Source: Minisyncoccota bacterium (lineage in GTDB: Bacteria > Patescibacteriota > Minisyncoccia > UBA6257 > XYB1-36-10). Taken from it: a DNA stretch of 64,000 nucleotides. The DNA is taken from contig JBAZJH010000001.1 of assembly GCA_041651415.1 (NCBI GenBank), positions 215,713-279,712 on the forward strand, given 5' to 3'. A program made the translations under genes and the position numbers. Under the pieces are notes generated by a model, which did not search any database, was not told where the DNA came from, and saw nothing but the letters and a program-made list of their open reading frames with translations. Every line of letters starts with the position of its first letter. Positions within the stretch are counted from its first letter, which is position 1. Below, piece after piece: positions 7,271 to 57,549 of the stretch.

Positions 7271-7354
7271 TTTTAATCTCCTATTTTTGCCAACTGGCAG
7301 ATTTTTTATTTCAATTCTTTTAAAAGTTTTTCATATTTTGTATTTTTTGTCAAC

Positions 7355-7418
7355 AAAACTCCACGGCCGTAAGGCTGTGGAGTTTTAAGTTTCGCCCCAC
7401 AGAAAGGCGGTGTAAATA
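7355..7418. repeat. intergenic mosaic palindromic repeat (modules A+B, degenerate copy)
   Basis: AAAACTCCACGGCCGTAAGGCTGTGGAGTTTT hairpin followed by GTTTCGCCCCACAGAAAGGCGG…. Same family as the copies at 9.6, 11.7, 31.0, 32.6, 35.2, 51.2 and 56.2 kb. Confidence 0.6.
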
Positions 7419-9579: not shown

Positions 9580-9602
9580 AAAACCCGAAAGGGTTTTTTA
9601 TT

Positions 9603-9724
9603 TTTATTAAATCTCCGCTTCAAACCCCTTAAGATAGCGCGCGGGGTTTGAAGCGGTAAAGATTTAAAATAAACCCCGACTTTCTACGGGGTGAAACTTT
9701 ATAGCCGAAGGCTGTGAAGTTTCG
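9603..9724. repeat. intergenic mosaic palindromic repeat (modules C-B-A, inverted orientation)
   Basis: Contains GGGGTTTGAAGCGGTAAAGATTTAA, AAACCCCGACTTTCTACGGGGTGAAAC and a GAAGGCTGTGAAG hairpin. It is the reverse complement of the layout at 11735-11895. Confidence 0.65.
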
Positions 9725-11470: not shown

Positions 11471-11737
11471 ATGGAAGGCGTAGAAAAAGAAAAATACCTG
11501 GAAGAAATAAAAAAACGGAAGAAAAAATCCCGCGTTTATAAAAGATTCCAATTGATCGGACTTGAGATTGCCATGCATCTTGAAGACGAGAAGCACAAAT
11601 CGCTTTATATAAAAATGGCGAAATTCGGCGACTCGGATAAATTGCTCGCTCTTGCAAAAAATATCGGGGAGAATAAAAAAGCAAAAAATAAAGGAGCTTA
11701 TTTTATGAAAATGGCTATAAAAAAACTGGAAAAATGA
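11471..11737 (+). CDS. hypothetical small basic protein
   Basis: 88-aa K-rich ORF. Followed by mosaic repeat and hairpin+T-run terminator at ~11862-11895. Weak ribosome-binding site. Confidence 0.35.
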   Translation: MEGVEKEKYLEEIKKRKKKSRVYKRFQLIGLEIAMHLEDEKHKSLYIKMAKFGDSDKLLALAKNIGENKKAKNKGAYFMKMAIKKLEK

Positions 11738-11895
11738 AACTCCACGGCCTTACGGCCGTGGTATCCTGAGTTTCACCCCGCAGAAAGGCGGGGTTTATTA
11801 AATCTTTACCGCTTCATCCCCGCGCTAACGCGCGGGGTTTTTGCAAAGATTTAATAAATCCCCTTGGCGGAAAATTCCGTCAAGGGGTGTTTTTA
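11735..11895. repeat. intergenic mosaic palindromic repeat (modules A+B+C plus terminal hairpin)
   Basis: GAAACTCCACGGCCTTACGGCCGTGGTA, then GTTTCACCCCGCAGAAAGGCGGGGTTTATTAAATCT, then TTACCGC…CCCCGCGCTAACGCGCGGGG…AAAGATTTAATAAA. Ends with CCCCTTGGCGGAAAATTCCGTCAAGGGG and a T-run. Confidence 0.7.
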
Positions 11896-31038: not shown

Positions 31039-31147
31039 AAACGAAATTCAAGATTGAGTTTCACCCCGCCTACGACGGGGTTTTATTAAATCTTAGCCGT
31101 AAAAACCTCGCGCTAACGCGCAATGTTTCTACGGAGATTTAATAAAA
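31039..31147. repeat. intergenic mosaic palindromic repeat (modules B+C), nearly identical to the copy at 32572-32688
   Basis: …GATTGAGTTTCACCCCGCCTACGACGGGGTTTTATTAAATCTTAGCCGTAAAAACCTCGCGCTAACGCGCAATGTTTCTACGGAGATTTAATAAA. Confidence 0.7.
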
Positions 31148-31267
31148 AAAGAAGGGGTTATTGGAGGGAGAAAGAAACAATCCACCGTTGGAAGAATTTC
31201 TCCGGAGAAAAAGACCAATAACCAGCCTTCTTGTGTAAAAAAGATAGCAGAAGAAAAAAGAAAAAGC

Positions 31268-32571: not shown

Positions 32572-32688
32572 GGAGATTTAAACGAAACTCAATTTTGAGT
32601 TTCACCCCGCCTACGACGGGGTTTTATTAAATCTTAGCCGTAAAAACCTTGCGCTAACGCGCAATGTTTCTACGGAGATTTAATAAAA
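32572..32688. repeat. intergenic mosaic palindromic repeat (modules B+C), near-identical direct copy of 31039-31147
   Basis: GGAGATTTAAACGAAACTCAATTTTGAGTTTCACCCCGCCTACGACGGGGTTTTATTAAATCTTAGCCGTAAAAACCTTGCGCTAACGCGCAATGTTTCTACGGAGATTTAATAAA. Confidence 0.7.
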
Positions 32689-32705
32689 AAAGCCCGTTTT
32701 AGCTT

Positions 32706-35147: not shown

Positions 35148-35274
35148 TTTATTAAATCTTCGCGAAAACCCCGCGCGTTAGCTAGGGAGTTGAAGCGGTA
35201 AAGATTTAATAAACCCCGCCTTTCTGCGGGGTGAAACTCAGGGTACCACGGCCGTAAGGCCGTGGAGTTTCATT
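35148..35274. repeat. intergenic mosaic palindromic repeat (modules C-B-A, inverted orientation)
   Basis: …ATTAAATCTTCGCGAAAACCCCGCGCGTTAGC…GAAGCGGTAAAGATTTAATAAACCCCGCCTTTCTGCGGGGTGAAACTCAGGGTACCACGGCCGTAAGGCCGTGGAGTTTCA. Confidence 0.7.
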
Positions 35275-35323
35275 TGTAATAATGTGCCTCCGACCAGAGT
35301 CGGAGGAATAAAAGCTAAAGCTT

Positions 35324-51174: not shown

Positions 51175-51312
51175 TTACGCGCAATGTTTCTACGGAGATT
51201 TAAACGAAACTCAATTTTGAGTTTCACCCCACAGAAAGTCGGGGTTTTATTAAATCTTAGCCGTAGAAACCTTGCGCTAACGCGCAATGTTTCTACGGAG
51301 ATTTAATAAAAA
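51175..51312. repeat. intergenic mosaic palindromic repeat (partial C + B + C)
   Basis: CGCGCAATGTTTCTACGGAGATTTAAACGAAACTCAATTTTGAGTTTCACCCCACAGAAAGTCGGGGTTTTATTAAATCTTAGCCGTAGAAACCTTGCGCTAACGCGCAATGTTTCTACGGAGATTTAATAAA. Confidence 0.7.
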
Positions 51313-51428
51313 AAACCCTCTGGCGGAGGGTAAGGCCAGAGGGAAAACGGTTCGGGAGGAACCGCAGCAACCGGGAATCTCTTCTCTATCTTGTGCTATT
51401 TTTTATGATAGTTTAAAGGAAAAAAAAG

Positions 51429-54615: not shown

Positions 54616-55389
54616 TTAATTTGCCAAAGCTTTGTCTAAAACAGATTTTATGAATTCAGTTGGATAAGCGCCTGGAATAGTACCCACGTAACCTTTTTCG
54701 TTAAAAACAAGAGAGTAAGGAGTGCCTTCAGCGCCGTTTTTTGAACCTTCGGCAGCTTCAGAGGCTACAGAAGAAGCATATTTACCGGAATCAAGGCAAG
54801 AAGAAAAAGCTTTTTCGTCTATACCCAGAGTTTTAGCGATATCAGACAATTCAGCGATTTTAATCTGTTCGTTTTTGAAAAGTTCATCGGCAAATTTCCA
54901 GAAAGCGTCATTGCCGCCAAGTTCGGCAACACATTCGGAAGCTTCCGCCTTTTTTTCCGCTCCGGCATGAATGCTTAAAGGAAAGTGGCGGTAAATCCAA
55001 GCAACTTTTCCGGTATCGATATAATCAGCTTTAACATCATTCAACATAGTTTCCTGAAATTTTCCGCAGAAAGGACATTCCAGGTCGGAATATTCATAAA
55101 TTTTAACGAAAGCATTGCGGTCGCCAAGAATATGGTCAGTATCCGAAACAGGAGAAACCGATATTTCTGTTTTTGCGCCAAGAGATTCTTCCACTTTTGC
55201 CTGTTCGCCATTTTTAACTGAAGGACTGGAGTCATAAACAACAGCTCCCGCGATAAGAAGGCCGGCGACAATAATGGAACTTGCGATAATATAAATGTTA
55301 TTTTGTTCTTTATTATTTTCTGACATTTTAAATAAGTGAATTATAAAAGGCGAGATAAGTATAAAAGAAAAGGAAAAAGTTATCAACAA
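54616..55389 (-). CDS. DsbA-like thiol:disulfide oxidoreductase with N-terminal membrane anchor
   Basis: CPFC active site (YSDLECPFCGKF) inside a thioredoxin fold. N-terminal transmembrane helix. Exact start uncertain. Confidence 0.75.
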   Translation of the reverse strand: MLITFSFSFILISPFIIHLFKMSENNKEQNNIYIIASSIIVAGLLIAGAVVYDSSPSVKNGEQAKVEESLGAKTEISVSPVSDTDHILGDRNAFVKIYEYSDLECPFCGKFQETMLNDVKADYIDTGKVAWIYRHFPLSIHAGAEKKAEASECVAELGGNDAFWKFADELFKNEQIKIAELSDIAKTLGIDEKAFSSCLDSGKYASSVASEAAEGSKNGAEGTPYSLVFNEKGYVGTIPGAYPTEFIKSVLDKALAN

Positions 55390-55394
55390 AAAAG

Positions 55395-55775
55395 AGGGGG
55401 TTGAAAATAAAAAAGAGGTTTGATAATATTGAAATCAGTACTTCAAACCGGTTATAGAAGAACTGAAGGAAGAGTAAAACTCAAACGACTTATGGAAGCC
55501 GTTTGGGCGGAAAATGGGAAGCGGTTCGACCGCACTTTGCTTGGTTATCAACAAACCGGCAAAAGGAGAAATATCATGTTGAAAGACAAAATGGTCGCGG
55601 GTTCCCGCGGTCAACCACAGGAATTCGGTTTCGGTTTTGAGTCTACAGTGTCTACAGTTCGGTTCTGCGACAGCGACGCGGTGGAGACTACTCTCTAAAG
55701 AGCACGCGCTTAGTGCATAGGGGGGAGATGTCTTCTACCCGGCCCGAGGCAAAAAGTCTCGGGCCTTTTAATTTT
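55395..55775 (+). other. cassette copy A: promoter (TTGAAA-17-TAATAT), ~140-nt conserved leader, SD+sORF (55576-55698, 40 aa), intrinsic terminator
   Basis: The leader CAGTACTTCAAACCGGTT…AGAGTAAAACTCAAACGACTTATGGAAGCCGTTTGGGCGGAAAATGGGAAGCGGTT is repeated almost exactly in copy B. Shine-Dalgarno AAAAGGAGAAATATCATG. Terminator GGCCCGAGGCAAAAAGTCTCGGGCCTTTT. Confidence 0.45.
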
Positions 55776-55776
55776 T

Positions 55777-56145
55777 AATATTGACAAAAAATAAATCGAT
55801 TTGATATTATAAAAGCAGTACTTCAAACCGGTTGAAGAAAGAGTAAAACTCAAACGACTTATGGAAGCCGTTTGGGCGGAAAATGGGAAGCGGTTTCGGC
55901 CGCACTTCGCTTGGCTAGCAAGCCAGCGGAGGGAGAAATTATCATGTTTACCCAAAAGACGGCGACCTGTGGATGTCCACGCGGTCGCCCGGAAACGATG
56001 GCTCAGTTTTTTTCAGTCACGACGGCCCCCAGAATCAGCGACGCAGTGGAGACTTTCCAAAGCACACGCTAAGGTAAACACCCCAAGTGCGTAGGAACTC
56101 TCCTACCCGGCCCGAGACAAAAAGTCTCGGGCCTTTTAATTTTTA
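55777..56145 (+). other. cassette copy B: promoter (TTGACA-18-TATTAT), conserved leader, SD+sORF (55944-56072, 42 aa), intrinsic terminator
   Basis: Same leader minus a 16-nt segment. Shine-Dalgarno GGAGGGAGAAATTATCATG. The peptide differs from copy A except for a shared …SDAVET… stretch. Terminator GGCCCGAGACAAAAAGTCTCGGGCCTTTT. Confidence 0.45.
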
Positions 56146-56150
56146 ATATT

Positions 56151-56262
56151 GAAATGAAACTCCACGGCCTTACAGCCGTGGTATCTTCAAGTTTCACCCC
56201 GCCAAAGGCGGGGTTTTATTAAAAATGAAGCCCCGCAGCCCTATGGTCGTGGAGTTTCATTT
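56151..56262. repeat. intergenic mosaic palindromic repeat (A+B enclosed by a long inverted repeat)
   Basis: ATGAAACTCCACGGCCTTACAGCCGTGGTA…GTTTCACCCCGCCAAAGGCGGGGTTTTATTAAAAATGAAGCCCCGCAGCCCTATGGTCGTGGAGTTTCAT. Confidence 0.65.
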
Positions 56263-57120
56263 TTGGCAGTTCGGGCAAAATCTTGTTCCACGCCCGCCGA
56301 CCTTCATTTTTTCTATTTTTGATTTGCGGCAACGCGGGCACAATTTTTTTTCTTTTTGATAAACCTTAAGAAATTTAGCAAAACCTCCGGGATGGCCGTC
56401 GCTATTTCTAAAATCGCGAAAAGTAGTCCCCTTGTGTTTAATCGCTTTTTTCAAAATCGATTGGCATAGCAAAAATATTTTTTCTTTTTCTTTTTTTGTC
56501 AAACTTTCCAACTTTCTATCCGGCCGGACCTTCGCTTCAAAACAAATTTCATCCGCGTAAATATTGCCGATTCCCGCGATAAGACCTTGATTCATCAAAA
56601 CCGCTTTTATTTTTCCTTTTTTATTTTCCAATAATTTTAAAAAAGATTTTTTTGTAAAAGCGGGAGAAAGCGGGTCAAGCCCGTATTTTTCTTCCACTGC
56701 CATTTTTTCTTTCTCATTAACCAGTTTCATATAACCGAATTGGCGCATATCGTTAAAGAAAAGCCGGCTATTATCGGAAAAAGAAAAAATGATGTGCGAA
56801 TACTTATTCGGCAAATCTTTTAAGTCGCTATCGGAAATTTTGTGTCCGCCGGCAGTTATCTTTTCTTTTTTCTTATAAATAAGCTGGCCGGTCATTTTTA
56901 AGTGAGTAAGCAAAAAAAGGCCGTTTGAGAGATAAAAAATTAAAAGTTTTCCGGCGCGGGAAATTTTGATAAATTTTCGCCCTTCCATTTTTTTGATAAA
57001 TTCAGAAGCATTTCCGCGCACGATTTTTTTCTTTCTGACTTCCACTTTTTTTATCCTTTTTCCTAAGATGATTTTTTCTAAATCCTTTTTTATTGTTTCT
57101 ACTTCCGGAAGTTCGGGCAT
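56257..57120 (-). CDS. mutM: formamidopyrimidine-DNA glycosylase (Fpg/Nei family)
   Basis: N-terminal MPELPEVE (catalytic Pro2/Glu3), H2TH region, C-terminal zinc finger CPRC…CPNC. Confidence 0.85.
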   Translation of the reverse strand: MPELPEVETIKKDLEKIILGKRIKKVEVRKKKIVRGNASEFIKKMEGRKFIKISRAGKLLIFYLSNGLFLLTHLKMTGQLIYKKKEKITAGGHKISDSDLKDLPNKYSHIIFSFSDNSRLFFNDMRQFGYMKLVNEKEKMAVEEKYGLDPLSPAFTKKSFLKLLENKKGKIKAVLMNQGLIAGIGNIYADEICFEAKVRPDRKLESLTKKEKEKIFLLCQSILKKAIKHKGTTFRDFRNSDGHPGGFAKFLKVYQKEKKLCPRCRKSKIEKMKVGGRGTRFCPNCQK

Positions 57121-57168: not shown

Positions 57169-57549
57169 TGTCATTCCAGCGAAAGCCTGCCTGCCGGTAG
57201 GTATGGCTGGAATCTAGGTTAATTGATAAATTTATAATATAAATCCTCCCATTTTGGGTTCTCTTTTTCAATAAGCCCCAATTTCCAATTTCTTTTCCAT
57301 GCTTTCAAATTTTTTTTCTCTTTTTATTGCATCGTAAGCATTAACAGTTTCTTCATAATAAACAAGCTTATCAACTCCGTATTTTTTAGTGAATCCTTCA
57401 ACTAGTTTATTTTTATGCTCTCCAATCCTTCTTAAAAGATCAGAGGTAACGCCAACATACAAGGTACCATTTCTTTTACTGGCTAAAATGTAGACGTAAT
57501 AAGATTTCATAAATAACTTTCTGGATTCCCGCCTTCGCGGGAATGACAG
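57169..57549. mobile_element. ~380-bp mini-element: GIY-YIG gene bounded by 14-bp terminal inverted repeats CTGTCATTCC(A/C)GCG, each end forming an ATTCC…GGAAT hairpin
   Basis: Left end CTGTCATTCCAGCG at 57169-57182. Right end CGCGGGAATGACAG at 57536-57549, whose reverse complement CTGTCATTCCCGCG matches 13/14 positions. The left hairpin also embeds a family-2 palindrome (GCCTGCCTGCCGGTAGG). Confidence 0.5.
57268..57510 (-). CDS. GIY-YIG nuclease-family small protein (UPF0213/YhbQ-like)
   Basis: MKSYYVYILASKRNGTLYVGVTSDLLRRIGEHK…TKKYGV…LVYYEE…REKK… is a textbook GIY-YIG core. 80 aa. Confidence 0.85.
   Translation of the reverse strand: MKSYYVYILASKRNGTLYVGVTSDLLRRIGEHKNKLVEGFTKKYGVDKLVYYEETVNAYDAIKREKKFESMEKKLEIGAY

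Follow-up and report, generated by a model that had tools for sequence, protein, structure and literature searches.

In a 64,000-nucleotide stretch of contig JBAZJH010000001.1 from a Minisyncoccota bacterium (here called the window; ENA contig ERZ27247363 k141_1350282), we examined two head-to-tail cassettes, A and B, that lie between a gene for a DsbA-like thioredoxin-fold protein and fpg and repeat with a period of about 370 to 380 bp. Both have the same layout, in which an extended -10 promoter is followed by a leader of 128 to 140 nucleotides (nt), a GGAG Shine-Dalgarno (SD) motif, a small open reading frame (sORF) that begins with ATG, a hairpin in the 3' untranslated region (UTR), and an intrinsic terminator. 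An initial annotation of this DNA had described duplicated promoter-leader-sORF-terminator cassettes, and all of the parts that it listed are present (Table 1). The predicted transcripts, on the plus strand, are about 337 nt (A) and 325 nt (B) long. We tentatively read the cassettes as two paralogous small-ORF genes that would each be transcribed independently as a monocistronic mRNA and translated, a reading that we hold jointly with the role for the leader proposed below and no more firmly than that role.

Aligned with each other, A and B have a mean column identity of 83%. A direct-repeat scan picked out a block of 63 nt that is 98% identical between the copies (55464-55526 in A and 55833-55895 in B) and a terminator block of 61 nt that is 92% identical. 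A 31-nt core of the repeat occurs exactly twice in the window, against an expectation of 0. The G+C content of the cassettes is about 0.50 to 0.55, versus about 0.30 to 0.45 in most flanking windows. Each terminator consists of a GC-rich 10-bp stem followed by a T run. The leader stands in a different frame relative to each sORF, as had been proposed, with 82 nt from the core to the ATG in A and 81 nt in B; the offset arises from two 1-nt indels, one in the loop of leader hairpin P4 and one in the SD spacer. The two predicted peptides share the SDAVET block noted before and, in addition, a weaker RG.P.E block.

A synteny walk through Fpg homologues yielded two further copies of the element, both single, both of the B type, and both at the same fpg-dsbA site. 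In the relative L004/L005, whose Fpg is 83% identical to that of the window, one copy lies between fpg and dsbA, and in L054 (Fpg 84% identical; a 1-kb contig) there is one copy, the leader of which is cut by the contig edge. The Fpg proteins of L004 and L054 are 83% identical to each other, so that the three lineages are roughly equidistant. The L004 promoter has the same TTGAAA-17-TGnTAWWWT arrangement as promoter A. The element is absent from the fpg-dsbA site in relatives with Fpg identities of 78%, 70%, 67%, 66%, and 64% (L006-L013), which have a spacer of 45 to 175 bp or an unrelated gene there. Covariance model R1, built from the copies, detected no additional one in the window, and none in the syntenic contigs of these more distant relatives.

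Comparison of the copies showed that the leader is much better conserved than the peptide. Leader identity is 80 to 82% for all pairs, and this conservation, first seen between A and B, is thus kept in the L004 and L054 lineages. The corresponding values are 59 to 70% for the 40 to 45 nt upstream of the predicted +1, 67 to 68% for the ORF of B against its orthologues, 52 to 58% for the ORF of A against the others, and 54 to 59% for the pre-terminator 3' UTR when the window copies are compared with the orthologues. As a calibration, fpg of the window and of L004 agree at 82% of all positions and at 66% of third codon positions; the leader is therefore conserved as well as the neighboring fpg coding sequence. 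In all three complete copies, conservation begins at CAGUACUUC, which is the predicted +1 and lies 7 nt past the -10 box. A sequence pattern for the element is GCGGAAAATGGGAAGCGG.

This conservation is at the level of RNA, as the initial annotation had argued. Its onset coincides with the predicted +1, indels of 1, 1, 3, and 9 to 11 nt occur in the leader, and hairpins P3, P4, and P5 keep their pairing. The annotation had also named an alternative that would undo its view, namely that a 92-amino-acid (aa) ORF of A (55420-55698; the "MEAVWAENGKRF" frame) is the real, conserved gene and B a frameshifted pseudogene. This frame is open in A, and its 68-aa version starting at ATG was called by the gene caller (P0001). 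However, 1-nt indels break the frame in B, it contains a TGA (GTT TGA GCG) in the L004 orthologue, its start would fall inside the -10 box, and a protein search with it matched only itself. The comparisons with L004 and B refute this alternative, to which we assign next to no probability. The leader indels, the break in B, and the TGA in L004 show that the leader is non-coding.

When each of the three complete copies was folded alone, the same four hairpins, P1, P3, P4, and P5, were predicted, with the SD and AUG unpaired. The z-scores of the leader folds were -1.5, -1.9, and -4.7, and folding of whole transcripts gave z-scores of -2.9 and -5.5. In the four-sequence alignment, 96% of the cells are paired, versus 35 to 49% when the partners are slid by 1 to 3 columns. 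P3, P4, and P5 keep pairing through sequence changes, including G-U variants, and the structure is assigned to the plus strand because the opposite strand would have C-A in place of these variants. In five pairs, three of which belong to P5, both partners changed, a count whose statistics are weak with four copies from three lineages and a structure derived from the same sequences. Examples are UUUGC/GCAAA in A versus UUCGC/GCGGA in B and UCCGC/GCGGA in L004, and GGUU/AACC versus GGCU/AGCC. The leader thus appears as a series of independent hairpins with invariant purine-rich linkers between them; linker GCGGAAAAUGGGAAGCGG is unpaired and invariant across the copies, and P5 runs right up to the SD.

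Two longer-range pairings were considered and rejected: neither A nor L054 has the UGGG:CCCA pairing, by which the SD would be enclosed, and in both B and L054 a C-A mismatch disrupts a pairing proposed by RNAalifold between AAACCGG at the 5' end and UCGGUUU in the ORF. The invariant loop of P1 (55441-55460 and 55821-55837) holds the 6-nt palindrome ACCGGU within AAACCGGUU, through which the A and B transcripts could form loop-loop (kissing) dimers.

A riboswitch was among the candidates raised at the outset; it would be of a new class, sense a metabolite or ion, and control translation of the small ORF. A structured leader directly 5' of the SD, the invariant unpaired linker, and covarying helices (in four sequences only, and in independent hairpins) are what such an element might show, and a long leader is unusual in a genome with leaderless-like genes (8 of 52; see below). 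Against this, the predicted leader folds contain no closing helix and no multi-way junction, terminator prediction found no terminator inside the leader, and there is no mutually exclusive expression platform. No alternative structure that masks the SD is conserved; the SD and AUG are free in minimum-free-energy folds of the leader alone and partly accessible in those of the full-length transcript. The distribution over three lineages is very narrow, the downstream gene gives no metabolic clue, and no Rfam family matched even at E <= 10. We consider a riboswitch improbable. Given hairpins in a row, an unpaired SD, and neither a junction nor an expression platform, we prefer to see the leader as a docking platform.

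The ATG, the GGAG (at a spacing of 7 nt in A and 8 nt in B), and the TAA are aligned in all four copies, and the reading frame is 40 to 54 codons long. The SD type, AAGGAGAA, is the same as in the few SD-led genes of this genome. In an unbiased nucleotide alignment by MAFFT, the B-type ORFs have gaps of 15, 6, 9, and 6 nt, and of 3 and 6 nt, all of them multiples of 3. Counted as net length differences between conserved anchors, there are five independent events, all multiples of 3, with an estimated probability of about 0.004 by chance. Indels outside the ORF do not follow this rule; the pre-terminator 3' UTRs, for example, are 42, 36, 46, and 40 nt long and differ by 6, 10, and 4 nt. Because the frame is maintained, we think it fairly likely that translation matters.

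Pairing within the transcript extends into and beyond the ORF. A predicted GGCGACC...GGUCGCC hairpin located 17 to 18 nt into the ORF is free of synonymous changes in B, L004, and L054, and a different hairpin occupies this position in A. The GAGAC of the "DAVET" block is predicted to pair with GUCUY in the 3' UTR, with G-U, G-C, and A-U variants. The 3' UTR hairpins are maintained by differing sequences, and the L004 terminator has a compensatory change from G-C to A-U. We read these patterns as suggesting that the peptide is weakly constrained and that much of the conservation within the ORF is at the RNA level. The peptides are hydrophilic, have no hydrophobic stretch of at least 15 residues, and are probably disordered.

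We propose that each cassette would be transcribed from a strong TG-extended sigma70-type promoter to a strong intrinsic terminator to give a small-ORF mRNA, and that the leader would act on this mRNA in cis and post-transcriptionally. It may serve as a docking platform for a trans-acting factor, for which an RNA-binding protein, possibly the peptide itself, seems likelier than a small-molecule ligand. Together with the hairpin in the ORF and that in the 3' UTR, this factor would set translation initiation, mRNA stability, or both. A cis-acting element for post-transcriptional control or stability on two monocistronic small-ORF mRNAs is the explanation that we favor, with confidence that falls somewhat short of even. 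A bolder version is doubtful in our view: the leader would be an undescribed, clade-specific class of cis-acting sensory or protein-binding RNA that gates a pair of fast-diversifying disordered small proteins, such as host-interaction factors, and the A and B leaders would be kept alike by gene conversion.

Several results weigh against the explanation that we favor. Nei-Gojobori dN/dS values in frame are 0.58 to 1.0, and those of the two shifted frames are not higher; the differences per codon position (8/12/9, 6/9/10, and 12/11/12) show no position bias. The B-type ORFs diverge at an approximately neutral rate. Stops are scarce in the two other frames as well, which run open in B over 78 and 92 codons, and AlphaFold gave the peptide a pLDDT of 56 with no secondary structure. 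With substitutions so even and no fold, the peptide sequence gives no sign of selection at the protein level, and the best-conserved blocks of the ORF overlap predicted RNA pairings. The 98% identity of the A and B cores exceeds the identity of either copy to the orthologue in the nearest relative; gene conversion or concerted evolution therefore probably accounts for part of it. The covariation statistics are weak, and the predicted folds show no SD-masking alternative that would make a regulatory switch. The anatomy, strand, leader conservation, helix covariation, and frame come from the sequence; that the cassettes are transcribed and translated and that the leader acts in cis, we infer.

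These same observations bear on a purely non-coding structured RNA of a new class, in which the SD, ATG, and ORF would be incidental. The lack of codon-position bias, the largely stop-free alternative frames, the fall of conserved ORF blocks on predicted helices, and a peptide without homologues among 1.8 to 5.8 billion proteins would all be expected of such an RNA. Length differences in multiples of 3 that are confined to the ORF would not, and neither would an SD, its spacing, an ATG, and a TAA that all four copies keep unchanged; the element also lacks a match in Rfam. We consider this explanation unlikely.

The main rival is a dual-function or mainly trans-acting small RNA (sRNA), whose 5' domain, made up of the first 18 nt (all invariant), the loop of P1, and the purine-rich linker, would pair with other RNAs or titrate an RNA-binding protein, and whose sORF would be secondary or dispensable. 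It accords with a free-standing unit of about 330 nt that has its own predicted promoter and terminator and no downstream gene, with an RNA domain far better conserved than the peptide, and with a dN/dS near 1 and no predicted fold. The whole transcript is structured, the 3' UTR hairpins persist in differing sequences, and the hairpins with free linkers resemble protein-sponging sRNAs. If translation were irrelevant, however, the ORF indels in multiples of 3 and the conserved ATG, SD, and TAA would be unexpected. The conserved linker is purine rich, which makes it SD-like rather than anti-SD, and GGA motifs, five in leader A by hand count, are about as frequent as base composition predicts. 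We rate this sRNA explanation as clearly less likely than not, though likelier than the other rivals. The GGA count likewise led us to reject a GGA platform of the CsrA type.

A toxin/antitoxin or precursor-peptide locus had also been suggested. A type I toxin-antitoxin-like module, or a precursor locus for a ribosomally synthesized and post-translationally modified peptide (RiPP) or a pheromone, would fit a tandem duplication with a long structured 5' UTR, a fast-evolving small ORF, and presence/absence polymorphism at one site. All four peptides also have a Gly followed seven residues on by a Glu, which recalls the ring of lasso peptides. For a toxin, the peptides are too hydrophilic, with no transmembrane stretch, and the cassettes contain no antisense promoter-like site, the only minus-strand sites being at 55386-55312 and serving the dsbA-like gene. 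For a RiPP, the N-terminal "leader" would be only 8 to 9 residues and the "core" more than 30, and none of the Pfam-recorded genes within 10 kb to the left or right encodes a recognizable maturation factor, be it a cyclase, a protease, or a RiPP recognition protein. We rejected the lasso-like ring on these proportions and the lack of maturation genes nearby, and either form of this explanation is very improbable. A leader peptide, a further candidate of the initial annotation, fits poorly with a transcript that has nothing downstream.

Table 1. Positions of the cassettes, their parts, and the flanking genes in the window
Feature	Position	Strand	Description
dsbA-like gene	54616-55323	-	thioredoxin fold; flanks the cassette A side
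dsbA-like promoter-like site	55386-55358	-	back to back with promoter A
Cassette A	55395-55775	+	
Promoter A	55401-55429	+	-35 TTGAAA (55401-55406), 17-nt spacer, TG-extended -10 TGATAATAT (55421-55429; TAATAT); 9/12 matches
Leader A (5' UTR)	55436-55575	+	140 nt; hairpins predicted independently per copy; 80-82% identity to B and L004
Leader A parts	P1, 55436-55465; P3, 55482-55505; linker, 55506-55520; P4, 55521-55533; P5, ~55535-55564; SD, 55565-55568	+	purine-rich linker GGGCGGAAAAUGGGAA; SD GGAG
sORF A	55576-55698	+	40 codons + TAA: MLKDKMVAGSRGQPQEFGFGFESTVSTVRFCDSDAVETTL; ATG, SD, and TAA align with B, L004, and L054
mRNA hairpin within sORF A	55593-55612	+	
3' UTR A	55699-55775	+	hairpin just before intrinsic terminator GGCCCGAGGCAAAAAGTCTCGGGCC (55741-55765), then T run
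Cassette B	55776-56150	+	
Promoter B	55781-55810	+	TTGACA, 18-nt spacer, TG-extended TATTAT; 11/12 matches
Leader B (5' UTR)	55816-55943	+	128 nt; hairpins predicted independently per copy; covariance model R1 score, 230 bits
Leader B parts	P1, 55821-55837; P3, 55851-55874; linker, 55875-55889; P4, 55890-55903; P5, 55905-55931; SD, 55932-55935	+	SD GGAG
sORF B	55944-56072	+	42 codons + TAA: MFTQKTATCGCPRGRPETMAQFFSVTTAPRISDAVETFQSTR; L004 and L054 orthologues differ in length by multiples of 3 only
mRNA hairpin within sORF B	55961-55989	+	GGCGACC...GGUCGCC; stems invariant in B, L004, and L054
3' UTR B	56073-56143	+	hairpin GUAGGA-ACUC-UCCUAC, then terminator (56109-56133) and T run
fpg	56257-57120	-	3' end faces cassette B

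Both flanking genes lie on the strand opposite to the cassettes, and no gene is predicted to be co-transcribed downstream of either cassette. The called genes with a Pfam record within 10 kb on each side encode NDK, an ABC transporter, GT4, DUF4012, LepA, Nfo, GIY-YIG, and Fpg proteins, as well as DsbA-like, PGI, M50 peptidase, S12, S7, EF-G, and EF-Tu proteins. Between nfo and fpg, on the minus strand, is an 80-aa ORF with a GIY-YIG domain (57268-57510). At this place L004 has an unrelated 117-aa ORF, and the relatives L006/L007 (Fpg 78% identical) have a gap of 2 bp. The nfo-fpg gap beside the cassettes thus looks like a variable insertion site, possibly a mobile one.

Between terminator B and fpg, at 56151-56263, is a 113-nt perfect-looking hairpin (-58 kcal/mol; z = -7.9), which we considered as a third cassette and rejected as a copy of a hairpin repeat dispersed through the window. 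These modular intergenic repeats resemble repetitive extragenic palindromes or miniature inverted-repeat transposable elements (REP/MITE-like) and also occur at 7351-7415, 11732-11863, 35213-35275, 9602-9649, 31039-31151, 32580-32692, and 51177-51315. Their modules are AAATGAAACTCCACGGCC..GGCCGTGG, CCCCGC..GCGGGG, and TTTATTAAATCT..AGATTTAATAAA. One copy adjoins a tRNA-Val gene, and the copy at 56151-56263 is absent from L004.

Among the 52 ORFs of at least 150 aa in the window, only 6 have GGAG or GAGG 4 to 18 nt upstream, and 8 have a TAnAAT box like a -10 element 3 to 20 nt before the first ATG, 6 of these being TG extended; both counts are rough, with start codons assigned mechanically. 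Boxes so close to the ATG suggest that many mRNAs of this genome are leaderless.

Database searches gave the element no wider family. The sORF translations, searched against 5.8 billion proteins, matched only the locus itself and one relative (the sORF profile, P0001 and P0122 only), and a HMMER profile search of 1.84 billion representatives returned the two ORFs themselves and spurious repeat proteins. Pfam and NCBIfam had 0 matches for the sORF peptides. In the window, Rfam 15 at the gathering threshold reported three tRNAs only and no family at the cassettes, so that the leader, which the initial annotation could assign to no riboswitch consensus, matches no known family. At E <= 10, the cassettes were overlapped only by terminator-type chance matches of at most 22 bits, and the L004 copy likewise drew only such chance matches, with no family in common with the window except a terminator-type match to SdsR_RyeB. 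ARAGORN found no tmRNA.

Searches at the nucleotide level gave a similar picture. An exact 22-mer scan of GTDB species genomes, which would miss the L004-type variant TTGAGCGG, gave 1 chance match. In that match, the 22-nt leader core TTGGGCGGAAAATGGGAAGCGG occurs at 3204-3225 of L003, the Pseudohongiella metagenome-assembled genome OZ253535.1, inside secA (...VLGGKWEAEV...) of this unrelated gammaproteobacterium; single exact-word matches of this kind need a check of their context. An exact 18-mer scan of JGI metagenomes gave 38 matches, all due to chance, and an exact-word scan of viral contigs gave 2, both due to chance. A blastn search of phages and plasmids found no match, and full-text literature searches found nothing relevant. 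These results suggest that the family is new and confined to a narrow clade of three lineages, probably within Patescibacteria. The genes of the window (DUF4012, bact-PGI_C) and the source names of some of the remoter Fpg homologues, which start with "[Pat", agree with this placement.

We compared the locus with known systems that combine structured RNA and small ORFs, and it belongs to none of the curated families for which membership could be tested. The glutamine-II riboswitch, or Downstream-peptide motif (RF01704), precedes small ORFs in cyanobacteria and lies directly upstream of the SD. In the cassettes, too, a conserved structured RNA immediately precedes the SD of a very small ORF, but they have no match to RF01704 at E <= 10 and no evident pseudoknot or compact aptamer, they occur in another phylum, and the whole cassette, not an aptamer, is duplicated. 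The dual-function sRNAs SgrS/SgrT, RNAIII/delta-haemolysin, and SR1/SR1P are about 200 to 500 nt long, have their own promoter and terminator, encode peptides of less than 50 aa, and are better conserved as RNA. The cassettes share the free-standing unit, the small peptide, and the better conservation of the RNA domain; unlike in those sRNAs, the conserved domain is purine rich and 5' of the ORF, pairing with a target is only postulated, and there is no homology to SgrS, RNAIII, or SR1.

Type I toxin mRNAs (hok, aapA, tisB, and ldr) often occur in tandem copies and have long structured 5' UTRs, small ORFs, and 3' stem-loops, all of which recur in the cassettes; the hydrophilic peptides, the lack of an antisense promoter, and an SD that is unsequestered in the predicted folds set the cassettes apart. 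The leader also resembles protein-bound leaders, such as autoregulatory ribosomal-protein leaders and those controlled by CsrA, in its string of hairpins, its conserved unpaired purines near the SD, and a helix abutting the SD. It differs from them in that GGA does not exceed the base-composition expectation, the product is not a ribosomal protein, and the binding protein is only postulated here. The locus is best filed as a new lineage-restricted case of a small-ORF gene with a structured leader or of a dual-function RNA.

Patescibacteria are ultra-small episymbionts whose mRNAs may largely be without long leaders, and to our knowledge post-transcriptional regulation and small proteins are almost unexplored in Candidate Phyla Radiation bacteria. 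The element is of limited general importance because it is so narrowly distributed, and its product offers no hint of function; should each cassette be only a highly expressed small-ORF gene specific to its lineage, it would count as an ordinary orphan. The locus nevertheless stands out in a 64-kb window with few SD-led ORFs and several apparently leaderless ones, since both of its copies keep a conserved, structured leader of 130 to 140 nt together with a canonical SD and strong signals for transcription. Should the leader prove to sense a signal or to dock a protein, it would open a way into the regulation of organisms that so far do not grow on their own in culture.

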